A DNA stretch of 64,000 nt from Candidatus Enterousia sp. (lineage in GTDB: Bacteria > Pseudomonadota > Alphaproteobacteria > Rs-D84): NCBI GenBank assembly GCA_045651525.1, contig JAZRSO010000004.1, positions 17,127 to 81,126 of the forward strand. The letters run 5' to 3'. Position 1 is the first letter of the stretch, and every line of letters starts with the position of its first letter. The notes under the pieces are model-generated. The model was not told the DNA's origin, searched no databases, and was given only the letters and a program-made list of their open reading frames with translations. The position numbers were made by a program, and so were the translations under genes. Positions 239 through 28,309 of this stretch are shown in pieces.

Positions 239-739
239 CTATCTTTGTATCAAGTAGTTGTCGCATGCTTTGGCGACTTTAAAAGCGTACATTTTTGCGT
301 GAAATTCGTCGGTAAAATTTGGTGTTTTTTGTATTTGGCCAAATGTATTTATATGGTATTTGATTAGTTTTGAACCTATTTTAGTTATAAATATTCCTTG
401 GATTTTTTGTGATGAAAATAAACAATGGTGAGAACAGCCGATGCAACGGTCAAATTGTGGTGTTTGTGTTTTGGGTGTGATTTTTCTGTTTTTATAGCTT
501 TTGCATTGTTGAACCAGGTTTTTTGCTGCTTTTATTGCGTCTTCTAGTGTTGCGTACGGTCGGCGAATTGGACGTCGATTGCCGAATTGGTCTTGCGAGT
601 ATGTAATAGGTTCATTGTTTTTTGTGGGTAAATATCTGTACTTGCCGTGTCCACGGGTTATGTAATATGCGCCTAATATGCACAGTTTGTTGCAACCGTT
701 GCATTTGTTTGTATTAAGTCCAATTTTTTGTGTGAACAT
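239..739 (-). CDS. Small cytoplasmic Cys-rich protein, paralog 1. It has two CxGCx3C motifs and ends in ACDNYLIQR.
   Basis: The ORF spans 239..877. The start was trimmed to the ATG at 739 (MFTQKIGLNTNKCNGCNKLC), 10 nt downstream of the neighbouring paralog's stop. The second motif is CIGCSHHC. There is no signal peptide. Confidence 0.6.
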   Translation of the reverse strand: MFTQKIGLNTNKCNGCNKLCILGAYYITRGHGKYRYLPTKNNEPITYSQDQFGNRRPIRRPYATLEDAIKAAKNLVQQCKSYKNRKITPKTQTPQFDRCIGCSHHCLFSSQKIQGIFITKIGSKLIKYHINTFGQIQKTPNFTDEFHAKMYAFKVAKACDNYLIQR

Positions 740-749
740 TGTTTTTGCC

Positions 750-1256
750 TTATTTTCGATTTTGATAGTTGTCGCACAGATGGGCGATTTTATTTTTTGC
801 AAACATTTTAGCGTGAAATGCATCGTAGAAAATGCGCGATGTTTGAATTTCGCCAAAAGCATTGATGTAACGCTCAATTACTTTTGATCCGATTTTTGGG
901 ACAAATATACCGCGAATAATTTCTGATGAAAATATACAGTGGTGTTTGCAACCGATACAGCAATCAATGTCAGGTGTTGTTAATTGGTCTTTTTCTATAC
1001 GGTAATCTGTGAAATCGTCGCATTGATGTGACAGTAATTTTGCTGCATTTATTGCATCGTGTGCGGTTGTGTATGCTTTTGCTAGTGGACGATTGTTTCC
1101 GTGTTGGTCTTTGGTATATATTTGTACTTCGTTATTTTTGGTTGGTAAATATTTTTGTTTGCCGTCAATAGTTGTTACTTGTAATGCCCCAAGGGTGCAC
1201 AGTTTGTTGCAACCGTTGCATTTATTTGTATTTATGCCTTTTGTTTGTGTGAACAT
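750..1256 (-). CDS. Small cytoplasmic Cys-rich protein, paralog 2 (CNGCNKLC and CIGCKHHC, ending in LCDNYQNRK).
   Basis: The ORF spans 750..1283. The start is the ATG at 1256 (MFTQTKGINTNKCNGC). It lies 5 nt from the stop of paralog 3 and is about 50% identical to paralog 1. Confidence 0.6.
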   Translation of the reverse strand: MFTQTKGINTNKCNGCNKLCTLGALQVTTIDGKQKYLPTKNNEVQIYTKDQHGNNRPLAKAYTTAHDAINAAKLLSHQCDDFTDYRIEKDQLTTPDIDCCIGCKHHCIFSSEIIRGIFVPKIGSKVIERYINAFGEIQTSRIFYDAFHAKMFAKNKIAHLCDNYQNRK

Positions 1257-1261
1257 TATGA

Positions 1262-1762
1262 TTATCTTTGATAGTTGTCGCACAGGTTGGATATGTGTTG
1301 TGCGCGTTTGATGGCCATATCTTGTGATTCATAGTATGGTACGTTTTTTGTAAGACCGCGTTTGTTTTTGTATTTTGTTATCGTTTTTGTGCCAATAACA
1401 GGTAAAAATCCATCACGATTTTGTGTTGATATATGTTGCGCAGCAAGTGTGCATTTACATTCGCAACCGTGACATTGTGTGTCTGTGAATGTTTGTGCGA
1501 CTGGTTGTGGTGGTGCAACGTAATGTTTGCAAGATTTTACAGCGGTATATGCGTGTGATAATGCGACGGTTGCAGAAACGTATGTTGTAATAAAATGCTT
1601 TTTGCCGCTTTTATCACGATAGTGCGGTATTGGCTGTCCGTTCTTTGTTGGGCGAAAGTTTATATAGTTGTCGTATAATACGACGGCCTGGACACCCAGT
1701 TTGCACCTGCGGTTGCAACCGTTACATCTGCCGATATGAATAGATTGTTCTTGGGTAAACAT
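1262..1762 (-). CDS. Small cytoplasmic Cys-rich protein, paralog 3 (RCNGCNRRC and CHGCECKC, ending in LCDNYQR).
   Basis: The ORF spans 1262..1762 and begins MFTQEQSIHIGRCNGC. It has the same architecture as paralogs 1 and 2. Confidence 0.6.
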   Translation of the reverse strand: MFTQEQSIHIGRCNGCNRRCKLGVQAVVLYDNYINFRPTKNGQPIPHYRDKSGKKHFITTYVSATVALSHAYTAVKSCKHYVAPPQPVAQTFTDTQCHGCECKCTLAAQHISTQNRDGFLPVIGTKTITKYKNKRGLTKNVPYYESQDMAIKRAQHISNLCDNYQR

Positions 1763-1766
1763 ATTT

Positions 1767-2087
1767 TTATCGATGGTTTTGATAGTGATCGCATAATGGA
1801 ATAATTTCTTCTTTTAATAATTCCAATGCTTCTTCGGCTGTGTTGCGTTTTGTGTTTGTTTGCAAGACATTGTTTGCGTCAAAGTATTCCATAACCGGCT
1901 GTCTGTCGATGGTTGGTACCCATTTTGTGCCATATTCGCCGATGACTTGGATTGTGTTGTCGGCTGCTGGTTGTTTTGGAACATCAATGGCTTTTACGCC
2001 CAGTCTGCAATGGTATTGGCAACCATGGCATATGTCGTATAAGTTGCATGCTGTGATATTGATTTTGTTTTCTTGGGTGAATTTCAT
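1767..2087 (-). CDS. Small Cys-rich protein, paralog 4. It is a shortened copy with a single CX5CX2CX3C block and ends in LCDHYQNHR.
   Basis: The ORF spans 1767..2297. It was trimmed to the ATG at 2087 (MKFTQENKINITACNLYDICHGCQYHC) so that it does not overlap paralog 5. The conserved C-terminus is retained. Confidence 0.5.
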   Translation of the reverse strand: MKFTQENKINITACNLYDICHGCQYHCRLGVKAIDVPKQPAADNTIQVIGEYGTKWVPTIDRQPVMEYFDANNVLQTNTKRNTAEEALELLKEEIIPLCDHYQNHR

Positions 2088-2101
2088 ACTTGTCACCTTT
2101 T

Positions 2102-2344
2102 TTATTTTGTGTGTTGATAGTTCGCGCAGTGCGTAACATGTATTCTTGCGCGTGCAATTGCAAGTAAACGTGTGCTTGATGCTGCGGGTTGTTCTATGTC
2201 GTCTATATCTATATAGGTTTTTAATAGTTTTTGATTGACTGTTGGGTAGTATTCGGGTGTCCAAGACAGCAAGTTTCTGTGTGTGCCAAATGCACAATGG
2301 AGTTCACAACCGTCACAATAATTTTCGTTTATTTTGATATCCAT
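2102..2344 (-). CDS. Small Cys-rich protein, paralog 5 (80 aa, one YCDGCELHC block, ending in HCANYQHTK). It is the first gene of the array.
   Basis: The ATG is at 2344. An AAAGGA Shine-Dalgarno sequence sits 8 nt upstream, and a near-consensus promoter lies immediately upstream. Confidence 0.5.
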   Translation of the reverse strand: MDIKINENYCDGCELHCAFGTHRNLLSWTPEYYPTVNQKLLKTYIDIDDIEQPAASSTRLLAIARARIHVTHCANYQHTK

Positions 2345-3145: not shown

Positions 3146-3376
3146 AAAATTCTTTGTACTTTTATTATGTGATGTGTTATAATTCACAGGTCAACGGGTG
3201 TTTGTTGACTGGGTTTAGCGACCCATTGGTAAGCGTCATGTAAAGACGTAAAAACTTATTCCAACCATTGGTTGGAGTGTGTGAATATATTGAATAAGCA
3301 CGCAATTCTTACTATTGTCGCTAAACTCCAACCACTCGTACAATAAAATACGGTGGTTTTTGTTTTGGGGGATGTG

Positions 3377-4174
3377 GTGAGGTATTTACTAACGATTTTT
3401 GTTATTTGTTATGCCAATGGTGCGATTGCTGCCCTACCCGATATTGTGTTGTGTGATGGGGGATTTCCAGTAATGAATGCGGTGTCAGAAACGTCTGTGT
3501 CCGAAACTGGCGAAGAAATTATTACGCCAATTGTTGAGTATTCTTGTCAACCGTATTCGCAGGGAATTTGTCCGACATCATATGTTTCGTATGATGTTTC
3601 AGGGTTGTTTCCAACAGATATGGATGGAAATTGTAATTCTGAAAAAATTCGTAAAGTCCCGTCACATGGTGGGTTTGTTGCGTCGGGATTTCCGGTAACA
3701 TTGTGCGATAATGGGTATTTTGATGGTGTCGCGTGTGTGCCTTATTCGGAGGCTTCGGAAAATTGTCCGACGGGTTATTTCAAGGCGTTTGCTAATAAAT
3801 CTGTACAACGCGTTTATGGAGAATGTCCGGATAAAACGGTATTGTTTTCCAATGAAAATATTGCAGTTTGGACATATCCGTATGATGATAATGTGGATGC
3901 AGATATCGTGTTGCGTTTATGTGATACTGGTTACGATATGAATTATTTGGGCGAGTGTGCAGCACTGTGTTCGGTTTCAAATACAGGTGTAAAAACGCAA
4001 TATTTACGTACGGATACTGGATTGAGTTTTCCTGTTTATAGCAAAAAATTAACGGTTCCGTCGTTGAATGTCAAGACAGGTAATCGTCGTTGTTATGTGA
4101 ATATGATTCCTGGTGGTGGCCTAAATGCAATAAATATCACGAGTGAAGATACGACTTATAGGGTTGTGTATTAA
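3377..4174 (+). CDS. Secreted Cys-rich hypothetical protein with CxxGY-type Cys repeats.
   Basis: The ORF spans 3353..4174 and begins with a GTG. The GTG at 3377 follows a GGGGGA Shine-Dalgarno sequence and gives a clean signal peptide (MRYLLTIFVICYANGAIAA). The protein contains motifs such as CDNGYFDGVAC and CPTGYF. Confidence 0.55.
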   Translation: MRYLLTIFVICYANGAIAALPDIVLCDGGFPVMNAVSETSVSETGEEIITPIVEYSCQPYSQGICPTSYVSYDVSGLFPTDMDGNCNSEKIRKVPSHGGFVASGFPVTLCDNGYFDGVACVPYSEASENCPTGYFKAFANKSVQRVYGECPDKTVLFSNENIAVWTYPYDDNVDADIVLRLCDTGYDMNYLGECAALCSVSNTGVKTQYLRTDTGLSFPVYSKKLTVPSLNVKTGNRRCYVNMIPGGGLNAINITSEDTTYRVVY

Positions 4175-4192
4175 ATGTATGGAGAAAGTGTA

Positions 4193-4663
4193 ATGCGTTG
4201 TATATTTTTTTCTTTGTTATTATCGTTATTTATTCTGGTGGACGCATGGTGTGCATTATGTCAGAGTAATTTTTCTGTATTAGTTACATTGGACAAAGAT
4301 TCTGGTAATACAGTAAAATATAGCACTCCTCAAATTGATGGCATGAATTGGCGTATAGATGTGGATTATGACACGATGACTTCGATAAATGGTACGTTTC
4401 GTTTTTTGCGTGGGGTTGCGTCATGTAGTGAATATGTTGGAAATTCACAATATGCGTTTGTTACGGGTTATCAAGTAACACCGGCGGATGATGTTGGGAT
4501 TTATTGTTGGTGTGCATTACGTCGGCCTGCGACCACGTATTTTATGTTTTTGCAGGCGTATAATAGTGTGGATGCGTGTGTGGCAGATTGTGCTGCGCAA
4601 TGTGCGAATGGTGTTCGTTCAAGTTATTTATTTAGAGATCATTTGTTTGAGGGGGTATGGTAA
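4193..4663 (+). CDS. Secreted Cys-rich protein of the CWC...CVxDCAxxC family.
   Basis: A GGAG Shine-Dalgarno sequence sits 8 nt before the ATG at 4193. The signal peptide is MRCIFFSLLLSLFILVDA. The core reads SCSEY...YCWCALRR...DACVADCAAQCANG and is shared with 4663..5154 and 27098..28309. Confidence 0.6.
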   Translation: MRCIFFSLLLSLFILVDAWCALCQSNFSVLVTLDKDSGNTVKYSTPQIDGMNWRIDVDYDTMTSINGTFRFLRGVASCSEYVGNSQYAFVTGYQVTPADDVGIYCWCALRRPATTYFMFLQAYNSVDACVADCAAQCANGVRSSYLFRDHLFEGVW

Positions 4664-5154
4664 TGAAATTATATTTATGTCTTTTTTTGTGTTTGTTTAC
4701 AATTGGTGCTGGTGCTGTAACATTTTGTGTAAAGCCAGATGTTATTGCGCTGGGTATAAGCTCGTTAAAAATCCCAACGGTAACATCGTATTCTGGGTTT
4801 GATTGGTCGGCATATGTACCAGAATTTGGTACGATACATGGTATTTCGTCTTGTAGTGATAAAGGTGGTGATAACTCTGTAAATTTGCATGGCTGTCGTA
4901 TCGGTAGTTATTGGGGGCATGTTGCTGCAAAGGGTGAAGATGTAAATAATAATTATTATGGTCGTGCTGATGGAAAAAGTTGTTGGTGTAAAATGACGCA
5001 TCCTGTTGAGTCGGGTTGGATTTTGGTTCATATATATACAGATGTGTGTGTATCAGATTGTGCAAAAAATTGTGGAAATTATTTAAAAAGCACTAGTCCC
5101 GATCACGCTAGTACACTTCGTTGTATGTTAGCGACTGTAGGTTTGGAGGAGTGA
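4663..5154 (+). CDS. Secreted Cys-rich protein of the CWC...CVxDCAxxC family, adjacent paralog.
   Basis: A TAATG stop/start overlap joins it to the upstream gene. The signal peptide is MKLYLCLFLCLFTIGAGA. The core reads GISSCSD...SCWCKMTHP...DVCVSDCAKNCGNY. Confidence 0.6.
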   Translation: MKLYLCLFLCLFTIGAGAVTFCVKPDVIALGISSLKIPTVTSYSGFDWSAYVPEFGTIHGISSCSDKGGDNSVNLHGCRIGSYWGHVAAKGEDVNNNYYGRADGKSCWCKMTHPVESGWILVHIYTDVCVSDCAKNCGNYLKSTSPDHASTLRCMLATVGLEE

Positions 5155-5237: not shown

Positions 5238-7634
5238 ATGGCAGACGATATTAAAAAAATTCATGAACGCGAGGCAAAATGGCAAAAACGTTGGAATGAT
5301 GAACGTGCATTTGTGCCAAAAAACGATGGTTCAAAACCAAAATATTATAATTTGATTGAATTCCCATTCCCAAGTGGTTCTGGTTTGCACGTCGGTCATA
5401 TGTTGCCATATACAGGTATGGATGTTCTGGCACGCTTTCGTCGTATGCGTGGGTTCGATGTATTGTATCCTATTGGTTATGATTCAATGGGTATTTCGTC
5501 TGAAAATTATGCAACCAAAATTGGCAAGCACCCAAGCGAATCTGTCGCAGAACTGATTAAAATTTTTGAACGTGATATTTCAATAATGGGTTTGTCTTTT
5601 AATCCTGAATCCAAACTGTCAACATCTGATCCTGAATTTATCAAGTGGACACAATGGATGTTTATTCAATTTTACAAGGCAGGTTTGGCGTATAAATCAG
5701 AACTGCCGATGAATTGGTGTCCGAATTGCAAAACCAATCTGACCAATGAAGAACTGGAAGATGGTAAATGTGAACGCTGTCATGGGCCTGTTGAAAAGAA
5801 AATGAAGTTACAGTGGAACTTGGCAATCACAAAATATGCAGACAGATTGATTGATGATTTAGCGTTGGTTGACTATCCAGAACGCGTTAAAACAGAACAA
5901 ATAAACTGGATTGGTCGTTCGCATGGCGCAGACGTCAATTTCCAGGTTGGCGATGATGTTATGACTGTTTATACAACGCGTATTGATACAATATTTGGTG
6001 TGACGTTCTGTGTATTGGCGCCTGAACATGCGTTGGTCAAAAAATGGCTGAATGCGGGCAAGATTAAAAATACAGATGATGTGAACGAATATATCGCTGC
6101 GGCACGTGCCAAGACTGAAATTGAACGTACAGATGTTACACGTGAAAAAACAGGTGTTCGTTTAGATGGTGTTATGGCGACAAATCCGTTTAACGGGCGT
6201 GAAATTCCAATCTTTATTTCTGACTATGTTCTGGCAGATTATGGATTTGGGGCGATTATGGCGGTGCCTGCACACGATGGCCGTGACTGGGATTTTGCGA
6301 AAAAGTTTGGTCTGGATATCATCCCTGTTCTGTCGGGCGGTGAAGAAGGTAAAGTCTGGGAAGGCGATGGTGCGCATATAAACTCTGGCTTTTTGGATGG
6401 TATGGGCAAAGAAGACGCCATTGTGGCCGCGATTAAATACGGTACAGAACACGGCTTTGCGCGTGGTACAACCAAGTATAAATTGAAAGACTGGGGATTT
6501 TCGCGTCAGATGTACTGGGGCGAACCAATTCCAATGGTTTATTGCGAAAAGTGCGGTTGGGTGCCTGTGCCGGAATCTGAACTGCCATTGTTACAACCAT
6601 ATATGTCAGACTATAAACCAACAGATGATGGCGAAGGTCCATTGGCACGTGCCACAGATTGGGTAAATACAACCTGTCCACATTGTGGCGGTGCAGCAAA
6701 GCGTGAAACAGACACTATGCCCCAGTGGGCTGGGTCTTCGTGGTATTTCTTGCGCTATTTAGATTCAAAGAATAATAACGAATTCTGTGCGCGTGAAATG
6801 TTGGATAAATGGATGCCGGTTGACCACTATAACGGTGGTATGGAACATACAACACGTCATGTTCTGTATTCCAGATTCTGGTACAAGGTATTATCTGATT
6901 TGGGCTTTGTTCCAGGTGTTGAACCATATAAAAAGCGTACCAGTAATGGTCTGATTATGGCAGCAGATGGTACAAAAATGTCTAAGTCGCGTAATAACAC
7001 AGTGCCCAGTTCGGATGTTGTTGCACGCAGTGGCGCAGACGCATGTCGTATGACAATCTTGTACCTGGGGCCATGGGAACAAAGTGCAAACTGGTCCGAA
7101 GATACACTGCGTGGTGTTGAACGTTTCTTGAAACGTGTGGAAAATCTGGCGGATAATTTGACAGACGAACCAATGACTGCAGATCAAGAACGCTTGCAAC
7201 ATAAACTGATTGCAGATGCAACAAATCGTTTGGAAGATATGAAGTTCAACACGACAATATCTGCGATGATGGAATATATCAATGCGTTCGGTGGTAAAAT
7301 GCCCCGCCCTGCGTACGAAACATTGTTGCAAGTATTGAACCCATTTTCGCCACATTTAACCGAAGAAATGTGGGAAAAACTGGGGCATGCTGATATGCTG
7401 GTGTTTGAACCGTGGCCAACATTTGATGCGGCAAAACTGGTTGAAACACAGATGACAATCGTTGCGTCGGTCAATGGAAAACGCGCGACAGAATTTGTTG
7501 TCGCAGCTGATGCGGATGAAAATACCATTATCGAAGCGGCGCGTGTCGCAGCTGGCGCAAAATTGGATGGTTGTGAAATTGTTAAAACAATCGTTGTACC
7601 AAAAAAACTGGTGAACTTTGTTGTGAAAAAATAA
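5238..7634 (+). CDS. leuS: Leucyl-tRNA synthetase.
   Basis: Class I HIGH motif (HVGHMLPYTGMDVLARFRRMRGF) and KMSKS motif, with LeuS-type editing and anticodon-binding regions. Confidence 0.95.
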   Translation: MADDIKKIHEREAKWQKRWNDERAFVPKNDGSKPKYYNLIEFPFPSGSGLHVGHMLPYTGMDVLARFRRMRGFDVLYPIGYDSMGISSENYATKIGKHPSESVAELIKIFERDISIMGLSFNPESKLSTSDPEFIKWTQWMFIQFYKAGLAYKSELPMNWCPNCKTNLTNEELEDGKCERCHGPVEKKMKLQWNLAITKYADRLIDDLALVDYPERVKTEQINWIGRSHGADVNFQVGDDVMTVYTTRIDTIFGVTFCVLAPEHALVKKWLNAGKIKNTDDVNEYIAAARAKTEIERTDVTREKTGVRLDGVMATNPFNGREIPIFISDYVLADYGFGAIMAVPAHDGRDWDFAKKFGLDIIPVLSGGEEGKVWEGDGAHINSGFLDGMGKEDAIVAAIKYGTEHGFARGTTKYKLKDWGFSRQMYWGEPIPMVYCEKCGWVPVPESELPLLQPYMSDYKPTDDGEGPLARATDWVNTTCPHCGGAAKRETDTMPQWAGSSWYFLRYLDSKNNNEFCAREMLDKWMPVDHYNGGMEHTTRHVLYSRFWYKVLSDLGFVPGVEPYKKRTSNGLIMAADGTKMSKSRNNTVPSSDVVARSGADACRMTILYLGPWEQSANWSEDTLRGVERFLKRVENLADNLTDEPMTADQERLQHKLIADATNRLEDMKFNTTISAMMEYINAFGGKMPRPAYETLLQVLNPFSPHLTEEMWEKLGHADMLVFEPWPTFDAAKLVETQMTIVASVNGKRATEFVVAADADENTIIEAARVAAGAKLDGCEIVKTIVVPKKLVNFVVKK

Positions 7635-7645
7635 GGTAACCGTTT

Positions 7646-8473
7646 ATGCCGGAAGAATATATCAGCAGTTTTGGTTGTTTTGATGGTATGATTGCAAGAC
7701 GGTTGTTACGGCGTGGACCAGAAGAGATTAGCCGTATTTATGATAATCCGTCACCATTGGTGCGTGCGATTGTAGAGCACAGATGGGCGCAAGAGCCTGA
7801 TGTTAAATTGGCACTGCAATTAAATCGAATATTGCGATATGCAAAATATATCGGTCCCCAAAAATATAAACAAATAAGAACCGAAATGTTGGCGGCAATC
7901 AAGGAAGGTAGTAATGGGGATATGACGGGCTATCGTGAGTTTGTAAAATTGATAGATAATCCACAAATCGGCGAACAGTATAATAATTTTCTTTCGGAAT
8001 TGCTTGAAAAAAGCCCAAAGACAAAAGCAGTTATTTTAAAACTGGGTAAGCGTAATGAAGAATTAATAAAATTCGGTTTGGATTATCGTGTAGATTATAT
8101 CGCAAACGATTCTAAGTTTTTTGATACAGTTAATACACAGGCGATATTTTTGTGGGCGTTTTGTAGACGCGGTTTTGAATTGAAATTCAAGTGCTTTTTG
8201 ATGCGGATGCGACTAAAAAATGACGAGGCAAGACTGGCGTGTATTAAGTTTTTGTTGCCAGATTATGAAAATATTATCGAAGTGTATCAAAGGAATTTTA
8301 ACGAGCGTCAGAAAATTTGTGATGAAGCTTCTAAGGTTTATCAGGGTGCTGTTAAGGATGTTAGGGATTTGTATCAACAAACAGAAAAAGATATTGATGA
8401 AAAATACCAAGGCATTGCAAGATATAAAGAACTGATAAGAACAAAACAATTACAGCCGTTTAAAAAGAAATAA
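7646..8473 (+). CDS. Hypothetical protein of 275 aa with no signal peptide. It occupies the position after leuS where lptE/holA are often found.
   Basis: It is a clean ORF starting at an ATG 12 nt after the leuS stop and ends at a conserved terminator. No recognizable motif was found. Confidence 0.5.
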   Translation: MPEEYISSFGCFDGMIARRLLRRGPEEISRIYDNPSPLVRAIVEHRWAQEPDVKLALQLNRILRYAKYIGPQKYKQIRTEMLAAIKEGSNGDMTGYREFVKLIDNPQIGEQYNNFLSELLEKSPKTKAVILKLGKRNEELIKFGLDYRVDYIANDSKFFDTVNTQAIFLWAFCRRGFELKFKCFLMRMRLKNDEARLACIKFLLPDYENIIEVYQRNFNERQKICDEASKVYQGAVKDVRDLYQQTEKDIDEKYQGIARYKELIRTKQLQPFKKK

Positions 8474-8500
8474 AAAAATCCCCAAACGGGGATTTTTTTA
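8471..8500. terminator. Bidirectional Rho-independent terminator of the ATCCCC/GGGGAT family.
   Basis: The sequence aaaaaaATCCCCaaacGGGGATttttttt lies between the convergent stops at 8473 (+) and 8498 (-). Confidence 0.7.
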
Positions 8501-9355
8501 AATGCTGTCAGCGTTTACCCAACGGCCGTCTTTTAATAAACCAGGGGCCATGCCTTCGGTTGAACGCAATGCGTCAATTACACTGCGTGCTTTTTGCGCG
8601 TCCAGATTGATAATGCGAACTTTGAATAAATCGCCTTCGTTTACAACGGCTGTTTCGCCATAAACCTTCATACGGTTTGCCAGTGCATCTGCGCTGTCTT
8701 GGGCGTAAAATGCAGCCAACTGAATGCTGTATGGACCTGATACAGGTGCTGCAACAGTTTCAGTTGCGACAGGTGTTGGTTCTGCGACGACTGTTGTGCC
8801 CAATGTTGCGTTTTTAACAGTGTTTGATTGATCGGCCAAAACCTGGACTTGAACCTTGCCCTGACCTTTCAGACCGATTTGTGCAGCAGCCGCAGATGAC
8901 AAATCGATTAAACGTGAGTTTACATATGGGCCACGGTTGTTGATACGAACAATAACAGATTGACCGTTGTCCAGGTTTGTTACCTGTGCGATTGTTGGTA
9001 ATGGCAATGTTTTGCTGGTCGCCAGCATTTGGTTGCTGTCGAATGTTTCGCCATTGCTGGTCTTTTTGCCATCCAAGTCTGCCGGGATAACACCAGCAAC
9101 ACCTGTTTGATTAAATGTCATATCTTCGGCAGGAATATATTGTACACCTTCAACCTGATATGCGGAACCGATAAAGTATTTTGGACCCGCCGCCAGTAAG
9201 TATGCGTTGTTTAAGTTTTCTGTTGCAGGTGCAGCCATCAATGGTTCTTCGCCAAATGCGTCTGGACCGTATGTGGCGCTGCTGCTGGTTCTGCTGAGGT
9301 CTGTACAACCCGCCAATATTGCGGTCAGTGCCGCCAAAGAGATAAGTTTTTTCAT
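8498..9355 (-). CDS. rlpA: Septal ring lytic transglycosylase RlpA. It is a lipoprotein with a DPBB domain and a C-terminal SPOR domain.
   Basis: The lipobox is LAGCTD. The DPBB core reads TSNGETFDSNQMLATSKTLPLPT..VRINNRGPYV. A SPOR-like C-terminus is present. An AAGGAG Shine-Dalgarno sequence precedes the start. Confidence 0.85.
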   Translation of the reverse strand: MKKLISLAALTAILAGCTDLSRTSSSATYGPDAFGEEPLMAAPATENLNNAYLLAAGPKYFIGSAYQVEGVQYIPAEDMTFNQTGVAGVIPADLDGKKTSNGETFDSNQMLATSKTLPLPTIAQVTNLDNGQSVIVRINNRGPYVNSRLIDLSSAAAAQIGLKGQGKVQVQVLADQSNTVKNATLGTTVVAEPTPVATETVAAPVSGPYSIQLAAFYAQDSADALANRMKVYGETAVVNEGDLFKVRIINLDAQKARSVIDALRSTEGMAPGLLKDGRWVNADSI

Positions 9356-9426: not shown

Positions 9427-10893
9427 TTATGCGTGAATTTTGCGGTCTATCAAGTATGCAACAGGCAGGTATATTATGCCGTATCCGCCAATTGCCAGTC
9501 CCAATACCCATATATTGGAAATCGTAATGGTTGACAGACCCATACCCAGTAATGTCGCCCATGCGCCGAATGCAATAATACTGCGTACTGTGCGTCCGTC
9601 GTGTTTGACAAGTCCGCGTTTGTGACACGCACGCCCCAGTAAATAATTTTTTAGATAACCGCTGACAACAACGCCAATTGGAATCGCCAGATAGCCTACA
9701 ATTGGGAACAATATTAAATACAATACGGCCGCAATACTAAGTGATATAATACTTGTCTTGACAGGTGTTTTAACATCTTGGGCGGCGTATAGTGTTTTGC
9801 TGTATATCTGGCTGACCAGCATCGCGGGTAATACGAAAACCTGAATCATAATTGCCAGTGCAACTGCGTGTGTTGATTCAGATGTCCATGCGCCATATTC
9901 AAACAGAAATTTAATAATTGGTTCTGCCAAGACAAATAAACCCACCACGCATGGCAATATCAGCATCATAGAACGACGCAATGAAGAGTTCTGTTGTATA
10001 TAGACGCTGCGAATATTATTATTAGCCAGCGCATTTGATATAGACGACATCAGAACTGTTCCAACAGCCAATCCAATCATTGCAAATGGTAATTGCACAA
10101 TTCTGTCTGAATAATACAGCCATGATACAGCACCGCTTTGAAAACTGGCGACCAGTGTGCCGACAATAATTGTTATTTGATAGAAACCGTTGCCAACGAT
10201 ACTGACCCCTAGTCTTTTAAACATACTTTTTATCTGTGGGGTCCAGCGTGGCTTAATCAGATACAGTCCAAAGTGATTTCTGCGTATGCGCGACCATAGA
10301 ACGCCGAACTGAATAATTCCAGATAATACAACCGTGCCAGCCATTAGGTACAAGATATGCGTGCTGCCAAACGCCATGGCGAACAGTAATGCACATATCA
10401 ACATAATGTTTAACAATACCGGCATAAATGCTGCCAACAAGAACTTTGAAAATGCGTTTAATATTGCAGACAAGAATGCTGCACCGCATATAAAGATTAC
10501 ATATACAAACATTATACGCGATATAATAACAGTCATTTCCATTTTCCCAGGTGTCGCGTCAAACCCAGGTGCCAATCCCCATACGACCAGTGGCATAAAT
10601 ATTTCAAACAGTATTGTAATGCCCAGTAATATCAGTAATAACCACGAAAAAGCATTACGGGCAAAATGTTCGTCTTTTTTGGAATCTGTGTACATGGGAA
10701 TAAAGATTGCAGACAATGCCCCTTCGCCCAGCAGGTCACGGAACATATTCGGCAACTTGAACGCCGCCAAGAATATATCAGACATGCGCCCTGCCCCCAG
10801 TACGCGCGCAATCAGCATATCGCGAATGAATCCGAATATACGGCTGATACCAGTCATGGCACCAACCCCGAAAATATGTTTGCCTAGTTTCAT
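9427..10893 (-). CDS. murJ: Lipid II flippase MurJ/MviN.
   Basis: The N-terminus matches the MurJ signature (GISRIFGFIRDMLIARVLGAG..SDIFLAAFKLPNMFRDLLGEGALSAIFIP). The protein is polytopic and 488 aa long. Confidence 0.9.
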   Translation of the reverse strand: MKLGKHIFGVGAMTGISRIFGFIRDMLIARVLGAGRMSDIFLAAFKLPNMFRDLLGEGALSAIFIPMYTDSKKDEHFARNAFSWLLLILLGITILFEIFMPLVVWGLAPGFDATPGKMEMTVIISRIMFVYVIFICGAAFLSAILNAFSKFLLAAFMPVLLNIMLICALLFAMAFGSTHILYLMAGTVVLSGIIQFGVLWSRIRRNHFGLYLIKPRWTPQIKSMFKRLGVSIVGNGFYQITIIVGTLVASFQSGAVSWLYYSDRIVQLPFAMIGLAVGTVLMSSISNALANNNIRSVYIQQNSSLRRSMMLILPCVVGLFVLAEPIIKFLFEYGAWTSESTHAVALAIMIQVFVLPAMLVSQIYSKTLYAAQDVKTPVKTSIISLSIAAVLYLILFPIVGYLAIPIGVVVSGYLKNYLLGRACHKRGLVKHDGRTVRSIIAFGAWATLLGMGLSTITISNIWVLGLAIGGYGIIYLPVAYLIDRKIHA

Positions 10894-11728: not shown

Positions 11729-11914
11729 TTTGAACTGACAGGGATGTCGGTTCGGGCCTTAGAAAAGCCAAACAGTTTCGGTGCAAAACGCATCGTAAAT
11801 CCGATGATGTCGGTGTTTTTGCACCGTTATTTTTACCACCCCCGATTATGGTCGGGGTGCCGTTGTAATATATTGAACGCAACGGGGTCACTAAACTGTT
11901 GATTTTTCTAACAC

Positions 11915-11945
11915 CCCGACCGTCATTTCTGTGACGGTTTTTGTT
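11915..11945 (+). terminator. Terminator or attenuator hairpin immediately upstream of the secreted protein gene start.
   Basis: GACCGTCAtttctgTGACGGTttttgtttt ends 13 nt before the ATG at 11958. Confidence 0.5.
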
Positions 11946-11957
11946 TTGGGAAAAATC

Positions 11958-12902
11958 ATGCGTAAATTATTGGTTGTTTTATTTGTCTGTATTGTGTTTT
12001 GCGCAAATGCACGTGTGTTGCATGTGGACGATAATGTAATAAAACTGTCACAAACAAAAACAACCGACCCCGCCCTGCACGTCCGTATTGGTGATGAATT
12101 ATGGTATGGGAATATGGGGCGCTGTACACTTCCTATGAACGAAAGCACAGACAAAGAATTAAAAGTAAGATACAATGATACAGATTATTGGGTGTCAGAT
12201 CATACAGGTTATATTATCCAAGATGGAAAATTAACAGATGTATTATGTAATGTGTATTTAATGGGGACAGGGACACAATTGATCGATACATTGCACGTAC
12301 CAACGCTGGTCACACGCAGTGAATTAGAATTAAAATTTTCTGATGACAATAAAAAATCAGATGGACGTGTTATTTTTTTTGGAATCTATGATTTTTATGA
12401 TACAAAATCGTCTTATGGGCTAAATTTTGGTGCGGGCGGACAATATTATGGTATCTATCCATGGATTTGTGCATTTAATGGCGAAGGTGGACCGTCTTGG
12501 TGCAGAAGTTTTGGAAGTCTTAATATTTCACAAAAATTAAAAACAACCAAACAACTGGTTGTTTTAGATGCAAAAAATAATTATGTACAATACGGGAATC
12601 AAACTAAAGTGCTACAAGGTCGTAAAACCACTGAAAAAGAATCTGTTATATTGTTTGGGGGGCGTTATACAGATAAAAATAATAATAAAAAATTGCTCGC
12701 TTATCAGCAAACAGATGCTATGTACATATATTCCACCAAGATATACGAAGATGACGTTCTTGTTCGGCATTTTGTGCCGGTGCCATGTGGGTTAAAAATT
12801 GGGGATTTTGTTGTGCCATCTAATGGCATGTGGGATATTGTAGAACAAAAATTTTATGGCAACATTGGAACTGGTGATTTTATTTATGGCGTGGATAAGT
12901 AA
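11958..12902 (+). CDS. Secreted hypothetical protein of 314 aa.
   Basis: The ATG at 11958 gives the signal peptide MRKLLVVLFVCIVFCANA. No recognizable domain was found. A conserved terminator lies downstream. Confidence 0.6.
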   Translation: MRKLLVVLFVCIVFCANARVLHVDDNVIKLSQTKTTDPALHVRIGDELWYGNMGRCTLPMNESTDKELKVRYNDTDYWVSDHTGYIIQDGKLTDVLCNVYLMGTGTQLIDTLHVPTLVTRSELELKFSDDNKKSDGRVIFFGIYDFYDTKSSYGLNFGAGGQYYGIYPWICAFNGEGGPSWCRSFGSLNISQKLKTTKQLVVLDAKNNYVQYGNQTKVLQGRKTTEKESVILFGGRYTDKNNNKKLLAYQQTDAMYIYSTKIYEDDVLVRHFVPVPCGLKIGDFVVPSNGMWDIVEQKFYGNIGTGDFIYGVDK

Positions 12903-17609: not shown

Positions 17610-18726
17610 GAAAAAGCGCATTTTTATAATCGCTGGCGAAGTTTCCGGCGATGTCTTGGGTGGACGTATCATGTCCGAAATGCCAAATGCAGAATTCGTT
17701 GGTGTTGGTGGCGAAAATATGCAACGGGCGGGTTTAAAATCCTTGTTCCCGATGTCTGATTTGGCGGTAATGGGAATAATAGAGGTGGTTGCCCACGCAA
17801 AAACGCTGACCAGACGTATTAAACAGACGGTTGATGCAATATTAGAATATAAGCCTGATTTGGTTTTGACAATCGATTCGCCTGGCTTTGCAAAAAGTGT
17901 TATTAAACAGATTCGTAAAAGTGATGATGGACAAAAACTGATTGATTCTGGGTTGCGGTTTCATCATGTTGTTGCGCCCCAGGTTTGGGCATGGCGTTCT
18001 GGGCGTGCAAAAAAGTATGCCAAGATATTTGATAAACTGTATGCATTTTTTGATTTCGAATTGCCTTATTTCACAAAATATGGATTGGAAACAGTTGCTG
18101 TTGGACACCCGATTGCAGATGGGTTAATTGGTAAATATAAATCACAACAGTCTGAAAAGATTATAACTCTTATCCCAGGCAGCAGAATGAGCGAGGTAAA
18201 ACGCCTGATGCCACTGATGCGCGATATTGTAGATAGACTGGTTCGCAATGGGTATCGTGATTATCGGTTTGTAATACCAACTGTGGAAACAACAGAACAA
18301 TATATCAAGGACACAGTTAAAAATTGGGCGGTTACACCAACGTTGGTGCCGTCATCTGAACGATATGATGTTTATGCCAAGACATACATTGCGATTGCGG
18401 CCAGTGGTACTGTATCTGCGGAACTGGCGATGTTGCATGTGCCGACGGTTGTTGTATATAAAATGAATCCGATAACAATGTGGATTGGTCGCAGACTGAT
18501 TCATGTAAAGTGGGTGTCGCTGGTAAATATTTTGCTGAATCGTGGGGTTTATCCAGAATGTTTGGGTGGCGATGCAAATGTTGATTGTGTGTTAGATTCT
18601 GTGCAGAATTTAACAATACCATCCCAGCGTGAAAAAATGATTTCTGATTTAAAAAGTGCGGACAAACTGTGGAAAAAGGCACATGGTGGCACGTGCGCAT
18701 TGATTGCAGAACATTTGTCAAAATAA
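17599..18726 (+). CDS. lpxB: Lipid-A-disaccharide synthase.
   Basis: The N-terminus (KRIFIIAGEVSGDVLGGRIM) and the rest of the protein match LpxB throughout. The start overlaps the lpxA stop. Confidence 0.9.
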   Translation: MQNKKKRIFIIAGEVSGDVLGGRIMSEMPNAEFVGVGGENMQRAGLKSLFPMSDLAVMGIIEVVAHAKTLTRRIKQTVDAILEYKPDLVLTIDSPGFAKSVIKQIRKSDDGQKLIDSGLRFHHVVAPQVWAWRSGRAKKYAKIFDKLYAFFDFELPYFTKYGLETVAVGHPIADGLIGKYKSQQSEKIITLIPGSRMSEVKRLMPLMRDIVDRLVRNGYRDYRFVIPTVETTEQYIKDTVKNWAVTPTLVPSSERYDVYAKTYIAIAASGTVSAELAMLHVPTVVVYKMNPITMWIGRRLIHVKWVSLVNILLNRGVYPECLGGDANVDCVLDSVQNLTIPSQREKMISDLKSADKLWKKAHGGTCALIAEHLSK

Positions 18727-18791
18727 TTTGAATTTTTTATTGGCAGTGTGGTTGTTTTTATGATACAATACACTTAACAAAGGAGAAAAGA

Positions 18792-19016
18792 ATGCGTTTA
18801 TTACTTGTTGGGATTATTTGCTTGTTTTGTGGCGCTGCATTTGCAGAAGAAGCACCAGTAACTGGTGGTACAGGCACCGCTGACACAACTGTGTCTAATG
18901 TTGCACAACAGGTTCCGAATCGTAAGTACGTAGATTTAATGGCTAATTCTGTTCCTATCGAACGACCATCAGATAATGCACCTGAAGGTCGTGCATTGGT
19001 TTGGATTGAAGAATAA
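18792..19016 (+). CDS. Small secreted hypothetical protein of 74 aa.
   Basis: A strong AAAGGAGAAAAG Shine-Dalgarno sequence precedes the start. The signal peptide is MRLLLVGIICLFCGAAFA. A terminator follows. Confidence 0.5.
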   Translation: MRLLLVGIICLFCGAAFAEEAPVTGGTGTADTTVSNVAQQVPNRKYVDLMANSVPIERPSDNAPEGRALVWIEE

Positions 19017-19034
19017 GAAATTTTTTTCAGATTT

Positions 19035-19065
19035 AAAAATCCCGCGATTGCGGGATTTTTTTACT
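19035..19065. terminator. Bidirectional terminator.
   Basis: aaaaATCCCGCGattGCGGGATttttttt lies between convergent genes. Confidence 0.7.
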
Positions 19066-19075
19066 GAACCTTGGT

Positions 19076-19393
19076 TTATCGCAGACCTTTGGCGCGACAG
19101 CATGCAGATGCAGCGGCCTGCCAGCTGGGGTATTCTGTTGATGGACTGCGTAGGTCACGCCATGGTTGCCAGCCACTGCAACGTTTGTTTGAACCGTTGC
19201 CAGTGCATTTTGCATAGCGACGCAATGAACATGTTTGATTTGAAACACGACCCATATCTGTTGTGCATTTTACAACAATGTTTTGGTTTTTTGCATCATT
19301 TTTACCCAGTTCTTTGGATGACATAACCTGATACGCATTTGCGGTGCAAATGGCCGTAATTATCATAACAGATGCGATAAGTATTTTTTTCAT
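19076..19393 (-). CDS. Small secreted Cys-rich hypothetical protein of 105 aa.
   Basis: An AAGGGGGC Shine-Dalgarno sequence precedes the start. The signal peptide is MKKILIASVMIITAICTANA. The mature protein contains 8 Cys. Confidence 0.55.
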   Translation of the reverse strand: MKKILIASVMIITAICTANAYQVMSSKELGKNDAKNQNIVVKCTTDMGRVSNQTCSLRRYAKCTGNGSNKRCSGWQPWRDLRSPSTEYPSWQAAASACCRAKGLR

Positions 19394-23543: not shown

Positions 23544-24014
23544 TTATAACAAAAACAGATTTGTAATGAAAGATAAAAATCCACCAATAAAGAAAAATGG
23601 TGCAAATGGTATATATTTTTGATTTTTATTCTTGGCCCATAATGTCCCCAGTATGCACGCGATAATCAGTGCGATTGCCAACCCATTTGTGCCCAGCCAC
23701 ATGCCACCTACCCCCAGTAACTTTATGTCGCCCATCCCAATCGGTGCGCATGCGTCTGGGTTCTGTTTGGTAAGTTTATAATCAAATACAGCGCCAATAA
23801 TTGCAGACATTAAATAACCAAACGCCCCGCCAATAACCGCAGATTGCAGCGTTATCGGAAAAGAATAAAACGCAATCAATGTCAGCCCAATCAACATCAA
23901 TGGAAACAAGTATGCGTCTGGAATAATACGACGACGAAAATCTGTGACGGAAATTAAAATTGATAAAATTGCGGCGATAACCAGTAAAATAATGAAAAAG
24001 ATGTAAGAAATCAT
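23544..24014 (-). CDS. Type IV prepilin peptidase, A24 family, of the short TadV/CpaA-like form.
   Basis: The protein is polytopic and 156 aa long, with Asp-containing motifs (TDFRRRIIPD...GMGDIKLLGVGGMWLG). An AAGGGAGA Shine-Dalgarno sequence precedes the start. It is the first gene of a four-gene minus-strand operon. Confidence 0.7.
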   Translation of the reverse strand: MISYIFFIILLVIAAILSILISVTDFRRRIIPDAYLFPLMLIGLTLIAFYSFPITLQSAVIGGAFGYLMSAIIGAVFDYKLTKQNPDACAPIGMGDIKLLGVGGMWLGTNGLAIALIIACILGTLWAKNKNQKYIPFAPFFFIGGFLSFITNLFLL

Positions 24015-27097: not shown

Positions 27098-28309
27098 ATG
27101 TTTAAAATAAATCGAGTGTTTTTATTCGTATTTGTTTGCACAAAGGCAATTGCAGTTTGCCCAAATGGTTATCATAGTAATACGATTGATATTTCAAAAC
27201 TTAGTTCGGAAGAAAAAGGCATTTGGCAAGCCTCGGTCGCTACTTATACGCACTATTCATATACATCACAAGGATTAAAAACACGATGCGAGGGGTATGA
27301 TAACAGAATTGCAGGTGGTTGGTTTGGAACAGATGAAGGCGGTACATGCATTGATTGTCGATTTGATAATATGAAACATGGTGATTGGTATATAGAATTT
27401 GATTCTGAGAAAAGCGGTTTTTCAACTTTGCGTGGAACTAGTGCATGTATATCAACTTCCTATGCGTCTGGTGTTGGGGTTGGGCAGCCGTCAGATAGCG
27501 TTAATCCATCGCCAGGTGAACGTTCTGGCAGCAGTTGTTGGTGTAAGTTGTTGTCAATTGATGAAATTGCGGTTGATTCAAGATGGTTATATGATGGTTC
27601 TAATGGTCATTGGCCTTCGAGTACTTGTGTGCAAGAATGTGCGCAGACATGTGCGTCAGAAATAAGAAATTTATCAAATAAAATGTTAAAATCGATGTTT
27701 GCTTATACAAAAAAATCAGTTGTTAGTGGGTGTACTGCTAATAATCAAGAGATATATAATATTACATATGATTTAGCAGGTGGGCAGAATTACAAAGATG
27801 CACCTTTTTGTTATAAAATAACGTCTGGTGACATTGTTTTTGGACAGCCTGTTAAATCTGGTGAAGTTTTTGCATATTGGAAAAATGATAAAAACAAGGT
27901 GATTGATTCTATTGTACAGGGACAGACAGGAGATATTCATTTAATCGCTCAGTGGAGGTCAAATTTATTATGTCCTGCGGGACAATATTTATTTGATGGT
28001 TTGTGTGTGAATGTTGGTGCTGGTTTTTATTCGCCGGCAGATGATAATCTACGCTATCAATGTCCAAATAATTTGACGACACGTGGATATGGTTTTGCGT
28101 CAGATGAACTTGGCGACTGTGGCTATAAACTGCATGTCGGAAAGCAACAAATATTTTTACGCAGTCAGAAAAATACAAGCCCATCATTTTGTGCAAAAAT
28201 AAATAACAAGGTATTTTATGGTTCTATGACTAGTAACGATAAATGTGCGTTGTGTACGAAATATAAAGGTGTTAATTACTCTATACATGATGATTCTATG
28301 TACGATTAA
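27098..28309 (+). CDS. Secreted Cys-rich multidomain protein. It combines a CWC...CVxECAxxC core, a segment resembling the Listeria-Bacteroides (InlB B-repeat / Flg_new) repeat, and CxxGY-type Cys repeats.
   Basis: The signal peptide is MFKINRVFLFVFVCTKAIAVC. The core reads GTSACIS...SSCWCKLLS...STCVQECAQTCASE. The Flg_new-like stretch reads YNITYDLAGGQNYKDAPFCYKITSGDIVFGQPVKSGEVFAYWKND...IHLIAQW. The Cys repeats read LCPAGQYLFDGLCVNVGAGFY..CPNNLTTRGYGF. Confidence 0.65.
   Translation: MFKINRVFLFVFVCTKAIAVCPNGYHSNTIDISKLSSEEKGIWQASVATYTHYSYTSQGLKTRCEGYDNRIAGGWFGTDEGGTCIDCRFDNMKHGDWYIEFDSEKSGFSTLRGTSACISTSYASGVGVGQPSDSVNPSPGERSGSSCWCKLLSIDEIAVDSRWLYDGSNGHWPSSTCVQECAQTCASEIRNLSNKMLKSMFAYTKKSVVSGCTANNQEIYNITYDLAGGQNYKDAPFCYKITSGDIVFGQPVKSGEVFAYWKNDKNKVIDSIVQGQTGDIHLIAQWRSNLLCPAGQYLFDGLCVNVGAGFYSPADDNLRYQCPNNLTTRGYGFASDELGDCGYKLHVGKQQIFLRSQKNTSPSFCAKINNKVFYGSMTSNDKCALCTKYKGVNYSIHDDSMYD

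Follow-up and report, generated by a model that had tools for sequence, protein, structure and literature searches.

Hypervariable genes for surface antigens or adhesins set in a conserved backbone are found at the msp2/p44 expression site of Anaplasma and at the neisserial opa and pil loci. The three-gene cassette described here, A-B-C, lies in a 64,000-nt stretch of a Candidatus Enterousia genome (the window, the whole stretch of DNA that was analyzed). It resembles those loci in the sharp drop of identity within genes for putatively exported proteins, in its near-identical housekeeping flanks and in the discordance between gene and backbone; unlike in those loci, the variation seen so far in the cassette is variation between genomes. 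A second likeness is to chlamydial OmcA/OmcB, with which the cassette shares adjoining genes for apparently exported Cys-rich proteins, a reduced genome and possible intermolecular disulfides (an odd Cys count). In contrast to OmcA/OmcB, however, the cassette is hypervariable, has neither sequence similarity to them nor a lipoprotein signal, and occurs in a genome with peptidoglycan genes.

The giant surface proteins built of Listeria-Bacteroides repeats (Flg_new, PF09479 / TIGR02543) are related in another way, since the domain that characterizes the cassette, named CWC after its central motif, shares polypeptides with 5-11 of these repeats, and both are extracellular repeat modules in very large, apparently exported polypeptides. 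CWC nevertheless matches no Flg_new or other Pfam model; it is an alpha/beta domain, probably stapled by Cys, that is also found as a stand-alone protein of about 150 aa. Finally, the RNA that precedes the cassette recalls attenuating riboswitches and leaders: it is promoter-proximal and structured, carries an intrinsic terminator immediately 5' of the first gene together with a competing helix that uses some of the same bases, and shows covariation. It differs from them in having no Rfam family and no leader peptide, and in that another copy in the window has the same architecture and P5 loop but helices of different sequence.

The Enterousia/Rs-D84 lineage comprises uncultured bacteria that are widespread in the gut, have no more than about 1 Mb of genome, do without the usual transporters and central metabolism, and presumably depend on partner cells (PMC12306168). 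The window genome is placed in Candidatus Enterousia, of the alphaproteobacterial order Rs-D84, and is probably partner-dependent. In line with this placement, its LeuRS is 98% identical to that of the Enterousia MAG locus L004, GcrA is encoded in the window, and housekeeping genes of loci L007 and L011 show 61-83% identity with their window counterparts.

The CWC domain family

The genes and domains concerned are the following.

3377..4174, + strand: gene A, open reading frame with translation, 265 aa, predicted exported, Cys-rich
4193..4663, + strand: gene B, 156 aa, predicted exported, single CWC domain
4325..4651, + strand: core CWC domain of B, approximately residues 45-153
4663..5154, + strand: gene C, 163 aa, predicted exported paralogue of B, one CWC domain
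27098..28309, + strand: gene D, 403 aa, predicted exported, multi-domain
27368..27712, + strand: CWC domain of D, third copy in the window (domain E = 2.5e-15, profile excludes D)

The gene coordinates of the original prediction are correct, and the TAATG overlap that it reported, in which the last letter of the B stop TAA (4661-4663) is also the first of the C start ATG (4663-4665), is confirmed in the sequence. Candidate GTG starts for A are present at 3374 and 3377, and an alternative ATG for B at 4175, right behind the A stop. The similarity claimed for the products of B, C and D also survives statistics: BLASTP gives E = 3e-10 for the paralogues B and C, 3e-6 for C and D and 2e-4 for B and D, while residues ~95-209 of D reach the E-value listed above against an independent family profile of 113 sequences. 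Among all six-frame ORFs of the window, an HMM made from the three cores recovers exactly B, C and D, with the next ORF at E = 0.05. The motif proposed earlier, G-[VIT]-S-[SA]-C followed by CWC, is right overall except at its third position, which is A in B (G-V-A-S-C); likewise, the gap from CWC to CV, put at 20-28 aa, actually ranges from 19 residues (C) through 21 (B) to 27 (D).

The domain comprises about 110 aa with the ordered elements G-x-[SA]-x-C, C-W-C and C-x3-C-x3-C, and each of its six core Cys is kept in 96-99% of 284 domain instances. Its extent in B was set from the repeats of multi-domain proteins (HMM positions ~40-152). The conserved Cys of B are C23, C78, C105, C107, C129, C133 and C137; the CWC domain of C contains a 17-aa insertion within a variable loop. 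An even Cys count had been claimed, which does not hold for the full-length proteins (13, 9, 11 and 20 Cys in A, B, C and D): stand-alone members usually have 7 Cys past the signal peptide, and it is the six-Cys core alone that is even. The description of the proteins as eukaryote-like modules has no support either: no similarity to any eukaryotic module was found.

Regarding known families, the core proved not to be an already named Pfam domain. No match to CWC was obtained in Pfam-A 2025 or NCBIfam 2026 with the window proteins A-C, the D domain region or the multi-copy proteins, and the 113 family members gave no family hit in Pfam/NCBIfam, the single unrelated matches involving 1 of 113 members each. 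PHROGs and PADLOC profiles (known phage and anti-phage defence families) do not match A, B, C or D, and a PDB sequence search with CWC returned no match. CWC is thus a genuine domain family that is named in no curated library searched. An exhaustive profile search finds at least 714 clusters (50% identity) at E <= 1e-3, 89 of them at E <= 1e-10, so the original prediction of a lineage-specific family has to be widened from three proteins of one genome; those clusters whose source can be assigned, a minority of the 714, always come from a reduced-genome gut alphaproteobacterium (Enterousia / Rs-D84). The domain occurs as stand-alone, predicted secreted proteins of ~150 aa and as tandem arrays in proteins of 784-6218 aa, in some of which (P0031, P0069) the tandem copies accompany the Flg_new repeats.

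In D, an N-terminal Cys-rich part (CPNGY...) is followed by the CWC domain, a segment with a weak likeness to Listeria-Bacteroides repeats and a C-terminal Cys-rich part; its orthologue P0038 has 402 aa. Residues 220-285 match Flg_new at E = 3.5e-4 with 21 bits, under the Pfam gathering threshold of 27 bits, and TIGR02543 at E = 0.049. The C-terminus of D compares with the C-terminal module of A at E = 0.013 by BLASTP and, by hhalign, at 10% probability and E = 0.003.

A shallow alignment of 12 sequences gave an AlphaFold pLDDT of 42, whereas the deep alignment of 113 sequences yielded a usable AlphaFold2 model of B (pLDDT 91.3, pTM 0.80). The modelled fold is a beta-sheet with a C-terminal helical hairpin: an antiparallel sheet is followed by helix 126-143, which bears C129, C133 and C137, and by helix 145-153 with the F-R-x-x-x-F motif. 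Foldseek with this model finds no match in the PDB or among viral predicted structures. Taking into account the secondary structure of the model together with rare double Cys losses, which pair C78 with C129, C105 with C133 and C107 with C137 (three single-sequence cases), three disulfides probably staple the beta-sheet (C78, C105, C107) to the helix face (C129, C133, C137). A family of this size, with a confident model and no structural match, deserves a Pfam entry. It also dominates the predicted exported proteome of Enterousia / Rs-D84.

A hypervariable operon of Cys-rich genes

The N-termini of A, B, C and D, inspected by eye, run from basic residues (n-region) through a hydrophobic segment to a site of the A-x-A type (A, CYANGAIA|ALP; B, FILVDA|WC; C, TIGAGA|VTF; D, CTKAIA|VCP), and about 130 stand-alone family members have the same Sec (SPase I) signal layout. 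The earlier assignment of the proteins as secreted is therefore upheld at this level, and all four look Sec-exported. In a diderm, a Sec signal means export to the periplasm and nothing further; no anchor, secretion system, autotransporter or beta-barrel signal was identified for A, B or C. The conserved N-terminal Cys sits 2-4 residues past the A-x-A site and is preceded by M, K, S, I or L in most members. A lipoprotein reading of this Cys was rejected, as there is no lipobox [LVI][ASTVI][GAS]C.

Gene A was predicted to be Cys-rich with CxxGY-type repeats, and this is borne out by 12 Cys downstream of the signal peptide and by four C-[DP]-x-G-[YF] repeats, which are kept across 8 orthologues. 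The C-terminal module of A (...T-x-P-S-L-N...C-Y-V-N...I-N...) is conserved too, and A has no match in Pfam, NCBIfam, PHROG or PADLOC. The three genes are adjacent in all seven Enterousia loci, with an A orthologue directly 5' of B in 6 of 6; three further loci (L008, L009, L013) likewise have an A-like gene 5' of a distant CWC gene. No terminator above chance level lies inside the unit. A-B-C is a conserved operon, in which C is, judging from the TAATG overlap, translationally coupled to B.

Comparison with the orthologous locus L004 shows how strongly this operon varies. A, B and C are 38, 48 and 43% identical between the two genomes, against 98, 97 and 93% for LeuRS, MurJ and RlpA. Along the DNA, identity stays at 33-66% as far as position 5112, rises to 83% over 5113-5231 and reaches 91-97% from 5232 onward, which places the right breakpoint at the end of C in this single genome pair; the L004 contig ends inside A, so the left boundary falls outside the comparison. 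Furthermore, the identity ranking of B is discordant with that of LeuRS. The cassette is hence hypervariable between near-identical genomes and is among their fastest-diverging parts, a pattern expected of molecules that face a partner, the host or phages. Its wholesale swapping between such genomes suggests diversification by recombination and selection; the window shows neither donor pseudogene cassettes nor repeats nor an invertase. The hypervariability could alternatively stem from an arms race of the toxin/immunity type or one driven by phages.

The favoured explanation of A-B-C and its leader, to which we would give an even chance, is a regulated, variable surface-binding module. Three tightly coupled genes would yield Sec-exported, disulfide-rich proteins, which possibly form one complex and may act as a variable, envelope-exposed binding or adhesion module touching a partner cell, the host or mucus, the cassette being diversified by recombination and selection.

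Instead, the products might be structural envelope proteins that remain in the periplasm or outer membrane, where a lattice cross-linked by intermolecular disulfides would stiffen the envelope of a reduced-genome bacterium as OmcA/OmcB do in Chlamydia. Adjoining genes for exported Cys-rich proteins in such a genome are in line with this proposal, as is the presence of the operon in every Enterousia locus examined, and the odd number of conserved Cys in the stand-alone members (7) would leave one thiol free for an intermolecular bond. However, a structural role does not predict 38-48% identity beside a LeuRS at 98%, no homology to the chlamydial OMC proteins is detected (no Pfam match), and the lipobox is missing. 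Peptidoglycan is present, given that MurJ and RlpA are encoded in the window and PBPs at other loci. Tandem copies of the domain also occur within giant proteins with Flg_new repeats, typically fibres exposed on the cell surface. Such a lattice is regarded as unlikely.

The leader RNA

Upstream of A, and at a second site in the window, the following elements were located.

3146..5154, + strand: predicted transcription unit A-B-C with promoter and leader
3154..3183, + strand: predicted sigma-70-like promoter, -35 TTGTAC at 3154-3159, 18-nt spacer, -10 TATAAT at 3178-3183
3190..3366, + strand: structured leader RNA of ~175 nt, with 5' hairpin, multibranch domain, P4, P5 and terminator
11738..11948, + strand: divergent second leader copy (covariance model 23 bits, E = 0.018)

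The promoter, predicted from its match to the consensus, lies directly behind the tlyA stop, and TTGACA/TATAAT boxes occupy the same place in aligned orthologous loci. In the leader, P4 is formed by TCCAACC (3260-3266) and GGTTGGA (3270-3276), and P5 carries the invariant 15-nt loop GAAUAUAUUGAAUAA (3283-3297). Region 3, ACTCCAACC (3325-3333), either pairs with 3270-3278 as an antiterminator or joins the terminator, in which 3330-3336 pairs with 3352-3358 ahead of a U-run at 3357-3366. The MFE is -63.7 kcal/mol (z = -6.8). An alignment of 13 sequences supports 26 pairs, with 92.5% of cells paired and 9 compensatory pairs; none of 500 shuffles reaches its covariation score, and slid controls are 35-45% paired. 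The alternative 9-bp helix 3270-3278/3325-3333 is paired in all 13 sequences with 3 compensatory pairs, and it is mutually exclusive with the terminator and with P4, since nucleotides 3330-3333 also belong to the terminator's 5' arm and 3270-3276 to P4. A search of Rfam (4227 families) gave nothing at E <= 0.1 in 3000-5400, the best sub-threshold scores being 11-19 bits against gathering thresholds of 36-47, and the leader contains no conserved leader peptide. A pseudoknot in which the 3' part of the P5 loop would pair with the segment CUUAUUC, located 5' of P4, was considered and rejected, as this segment lacks conservation outside Enterousia.

The second copy, upstream of a gene for a 314-aa predicted exported protein (11958..12902), has the same architecture and an MFE of -81.5 kcal/mol (z = -6.5). 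Its helices 1-2-3 differ in sequence (CCCCGA / UCGGGG / CCCCGACC), and its P5 loop core is AAUAUAUUGAA (11867-11877), an exact 11-mer found within the window in the two leaders only. The covariance model also matches the orthologous position in L004. Strong independent copies lie directly 5' of CWC genes in L010 (two) and L011, and in L019 a CWC gene is directly 3' of the leader.

These features suggest a cis-regulatory attenuator with a terminator/antiterminator switch. Transcription of A-B-C (3146..5154) would start at the sigma-70-like promoter, and the exclusive terminator and antiterminator helices of the ~175-nt leader would decide whether it continues. A conserved leader of this switch architecture, with no match in Rfam, would tie several such operons into one regulon.

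The element might otherwise be an independent small RNA gene, with A-B-C expressed by leakage through the terminator or from a weak promoter of its own. It does possess promoter-like boxes and a terminator, its invariant 15-nt loop would suit a seed region, and it occurs 5' of unrelated genes without a CWC domain (L017, L020, L021); moreover, the L015 copy, which has neither the U-run nor a same-strand downstream gene, could be such an independent RNA. Yet a simple small RNA would not need the 9-bp competing helix that is kept in 13 of 13 sequences with compensatory changes. The start of A is within ~10 nt of the U-run, too close for a further promoter to fit in between. At loci where tlyA lies elsewhere, the element is still found with A-B-C, and 10 of the 16 strong copies directly precede a CWC-containing operon. 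The small-RNA reading is judged quite improbable.

Function of the cassette

The original prediction cast these proteins as secreted effectors, a proposal that finds no backing in any toxin or enzyme domain; what the architecture and the hypervariability suggest is surface or binding proteins. In its specific form, B and/or C would be an active secreted toxin, bacteriocin-like or host-directed, with arms-race polymorphism. Small, exported, disulfide-rich proteins would fit, a hypervariable cassette in a conserved backbone is reminiscent of polymorphic toxin loci, and in one giant tandem-CWC protein the domain is fused to an extracellular endonuclease (C-terminal Endonuclease_1 domain). On the other hand, no toxin, enzyme or immunity domain is detectable in A-D, and signal peptides on all three cassette products leave no candidate for a cytoplasmic immunity protein. 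Most occurrences of the domain are repeats within very large repeat proteins, a setting that fits a binding or spacer module, and the B orthologues keep long invariant blocks that are surface-independent. A toxin is thus considered very unlikely. A last reading would have the similarity arise artificially from the composition of Cys-rich ORFs, of which the genome has many hypothetical examples, or would deny that the ORFs are real genes. It has a negligible probability and is refuted by E-values as low as 2.5e-15 against an independent profile, the same ordered motifs in 714 clusters, an operon syntenic across 7 loci and a confident AlphaFold model.

A bolder form of the surface-binding module can be put forward as a speculation that is probably wrong in full: CWC would be a new fold, its beta-sheet and helix zipped together by three disulfides, and would serve obligately partner-dependent gut alphaproteobacteria as a partner-recognition module, A-B-C a strain-specific docking determinant swapped by recombination, and the leader a new class of riboswitch or attenuator that senses contact or nutrient state. 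If true, it would open a first molecular route to the question of how Rs-D84 / Enterousia cells select partners and stay attached to them.

Regarding the source of variation, a DGR-target reading of the cassette was rejected, as there is no adenine-specific TR/VR pair in 20 kb and no RT at the window cassette. This reading had been prompted by an RT that adjoins the A-like/CWC gene pair in L008, L013 and L014.

Genes A-D and the CWC domain

The analysis concerns three adjacent genes, A, B and C, together with a more distant fourth gene, D:

3377..4174, + strand: gene A, open reading frame with possible GTG starts at 3374 or 3377
4193..4663, + strand: gene B, open reading frame with an alternative ATG at 4175, immediately past the A stop
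4663..5154, + strand: gene C, open reading frame
27098..28309, + strand: gene D, open reading frame

B and C are joined by the TAATG overlap originally described, the B stop TAA (4661-4663) sharing a base with the C start ATG (4663-4665), and GAGGGGG is found 8 nt 5' of the C start. A-B-C is a conserved three-gene operon, its order and adjacency being kept in 7 of 7 Enterousia loci (the window and L001-L006); the position of tlyA is not fixed, lying either upstream or downstream. By eye, each of the four N-termini has a basic n-region followed by hydrophobic residues and a site resembling A-x-A, a pattern that would suit Sec export. The original statement of an even cysteine count is wrong, since the full-length proteins contain 13 (A), 9 (B), 11 (C) and 20 (D) cysteines.

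The similarity proposed for B, C and D is real: BLASTP gives E=3e-10 for B-C, 3e-6 for C-D and 2e-4 for B-D, and a profile built from 113 family members, with D left out, matches residues ~95-209 of D (domain E=2.5e-15), thereby confirming a third copy of the core. The window has 826 ORFs in six frames, and an HMM of the three cores picks out only B, C and D from them (runner-up E=0.05). The proposed core motif is essentially right, except that B has G-V-A-S-C at its start; the CWC-to-CV spacing is 19-27 residues. The view that this domain, here termed the CWC domain, lacks an existing name also stands, because the library searches are empty: there is no match in Pfam-A (2025 copy), NCBIfam (2026), PHROGs or PADLOC to A, B, C, the CWC-bearing region of D or the multi-copy relatives, no systematic fraction of the 113 members is matched by these libraries, and the profile, run against every sequence in the PDB, has a best hit of only E=1.5. 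The labels "eukaryote-like" and "effector" find no support.

Six cysteine columns (C78, C105, C107, C129, C133 and C137, B numbering) are 96-99% conserved across 284 domain instances. Stand-alone forms carry in addition an N-terminal C23, 2-4 residues past the predicted signal-peptidase site, and therefore typically have seven cysteines. C23 does not sit in a lipobox, since the -1 position is usually filled by M, K, S, I or L. AlphaFold2 yields a pLDDT of 42 on a 12-sequence alignment and of 91.3 (pTM 0.80) on 113 sequences. The model comprises strands 47-49, 52-57, 62-64, 67-69, 71-79, 104-111 and 117-122, a helix (126-143) with the C-x3-C-x3-C motif all on one face, and a helix (145-153) bearing an F-R-x-x-x-F motif. 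C105 and C107 lie on the same side of one strand, and three rare sequences display double losses of C78-C129, C105-C133 and C107-C137. Taken with the cysteine face of the helix, these features tentatively suggest three sheet-to-helix intradomain disulfides. Segment 85-102, from the S-C-S motif to the CWC strand, varies most in sequence and length.

Extent of the family and its gene partners

CWC is an unnamed, widespread six-cysteine domain, a new family that would belong to a well-known class, exported surface modules stabilised by disulfides. A word-indexed search returns only 14 clusters; exhaustive searching with HMMER, across 1.84 billion representatives, raises this to 714 (E<=1e-3), of which 89 reach E<=1e-10 and 5 reach E<=1e-30. 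The majority of matches are ~140-175 aa long, with a signal peptide and a single domain. Multi-copy proteins contain 2-7 domain copies each:

P0032: 784 aa, multi-copy
P0031: 4750 aa (L012 8536..22788), five CWC and five Flg_new domains with a C-terminal Endonuclease_1 (PF04231)
P0069: 2382 aa, multi-copy, with 11 Flg_new repeats
P0030: 6218 aa, seven CWC copies

One possibility is that P0031 acts as a nuclease tethered to the surface of a bacterium unable to make nucleotides. Where the source can be judged, which is the case for a minority of the 714 clusters, it is always the bacterial group of the window, under the names Candidatus Enterousia scatequi and Alphaproteobacteria bacterium. The housekeeping genes of L007 and L011 are 61-83% identical to those of the window, and L012 encodes TrcR. 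B-type relatives are present in five genomes named Candidatus Enterousia sp. or Alphaproteobacteria bacterium; the window itself has a gene for GcrA, a regulator of Alphaproteobacteria. Enterousia, a member of the order Rs-D84, consists of uncultured gut bacteria with genomes of ~1 Mb or less that lack a respiratory chain and standard transporters, and dependence on partner organisms has been proposed (PMC12306168).

Pairing of a CWC gene with a C-P-x-G-Y-type Cys-rich protein is recurrent, given that in L008, L009, L013 and L014 an A-like gene lies 5' of a CWC gene only distantly related to B (29% identity), and that the CWC gene of L010 and L011, from another genus, has on its 3' side a gene for a 92-aa protein in which CPAGY and CPSGY motifs occur. 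In L010 the unit of leader RNA (see below), 153-aa CWC gene and 92-aa gene occurs twice, inverted (9796..10714 and 18156..19076), on either side of genes whose products, 996 and 699 aa long, are large, rich in cysteine and predicted to be exported; the 996-aa protein is 25% identical to window ORF 47236..49761. In L013 (9112..13250), and likewise L008, L009 and L014, downstream of the A-like and CWC genes lie, in this order, a 114-aa ORF, a reverse transcriptase (phrog_1423, E=3e-96) and an array of GC-rich hairpin repeats of 47-141 nt. A DGR reading is not evident; an adenine-specific TR/VR pair was looked for in 20 kb and none was found.

A structured leader RNA upstream of A

The 230-bp tlyA-A spacer, which lies 5' of the stretch originally described, is conserved far above the level of the coding genes that follow it. 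Within 3146..3370 it contains a promoter-like site and a ~175-nt leader, which folds at -63.7 kcal/mol (z=-6.8):

3154-3183, + strand: promoter-like site, TTGTAC-18-TATAAT
3270-3278 with 3325-3333, + strand: competing 9-bp helix, GGUUGGAGU with ACUCCAACC, from the alignment
3330-3366, + strand: hairpin and U-run, ~10 nt before the A start
11738-11948, + strand: divergent second leader copy found by the covariance model, of the same architecture with different helix sequences

An exact 23-mer of the invariant core retrieves seven further metagenomic copies. The leader is supported by covariation: in a 13-sequence alignment, the consensus structure has 26 pairs, 92.5% paired, with compensatory changes in nine; none of 500 shuffles is as good, and slid controls reach 35-45% paired. 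The competing helix pairs in every one of the 13 sequences, and three of its pairs are compensatory. It uses bases of both hairpin P4 and the terminator 5' arm, and the predicted helices have the arrangement typical of a terminator and antiterminator. Rfam has no family that matches the leader, and no conserved leader peptide is found within it.

Copies outside the training set score 134 and 95 bits (L010) and 81 bits (L011) directly 5' of CWC genes, and in L019 a leader is likewise followed directly by a CWC gene. Other copies precede different genes, with a signal peptide in L016, L018 and L020 and none in L017 and L021. The L015 copy apparently stands alone, as would a free small RNA, the rival reading of the leader. 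We favor transcription attenuation control of A-B-C, which the helix layout and the position of the U-run hairpin suggest; the leader is a candidate new RNA motif inside the familiar class of terminator/antiterminator regulators.

The second copy retains the loop core AAUAUAUUGAA at 11867-11877. The gene 3' of it (11958..12902) encodes a 314-aa protein, predicted to be exported and without Pfam match, whose N-terminal part weakly resembles the D C-terminus (phmmer E=0.037). In L005, a tandem pair of 181-aa paralogous genes (7467..8843) lies between tlyA and the leader/A-B-C unit, with a weak leader-model match (33.7 bits, 8028-8219) between them on their strand.

Strain variability and other Cys-rich genes

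Between strains, A-B-C is extremely divergent, and the divergent stretch has a sharp edge. Against L004, the locus of a near-identical Enterousia MAG (LeuRS 98%, MurJ 97%, RlpA 93%), protein identity is 38% for A, 48% for B and 43% for C. By global alignment, DNA identity is 33-66% at 3399-5112, 83% at 5113-5231 and 91-97% from 5232. The L004 contig (1..1565) stops within A, exactly where likeness to the window vanishes, consistent with an assembly break at a strain-variable locus. B and LeuRS identity rankings are discordant: the nearest relatives of B are in L001 (71%), L003 (69%) and L002 (63%), with LeuRS of L002 and L003 merely 77-78% identical, while B of L004 and L005 is 48-49% identical despite LeuRS values of 98% and 93%. 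This is the pattern of a recombination-exchanged cassette or of retained ancient alleles, and molecules that face a partner, the host or phages typically show it.

A, B and C may be exposed at the envelope, and the occurrence of the domain in tandem within giant Flg_new proteins suggests a binding or adhesion role. The conserved cysteines would also suit a structural, disulfide-linked envelope lattice, and predicted export a secreted toxin; we prefer binding or adhesion over the lattice in view of the strain variation, and over both in view of the tandem use of the domain.

Further Cys-rich genes occur in the window. At 239..2344 (- strand) lie four paralogous genes in tandem. Their products are small and Cys-rich, lack signal peptides and Pfam matches, begin with sequences such as MFTQ...C-N-G-C-N-x-x-C-x-L-G, and have conserved counterparts in L005 and L006. 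Two adjoining genes at 47236..51111 encode Cys-rich proteins, predicted to be exported, of 841 aa (3.9% Cys) and 432 aa (6.2% Cys), neither matched in Pfam; the genome mean is 1.9%. Finally, the gene at 24702..26858 has gcrA, gene D and a gene for a prepilin peptidase (23544..24014) as neighbours. Its 718-aa product starts with a coiled-coil, is of PEP-type low complexity, acidic and Pro-rich, in its middle part, has one TM segment, and ends in a short Cys-rich tail.
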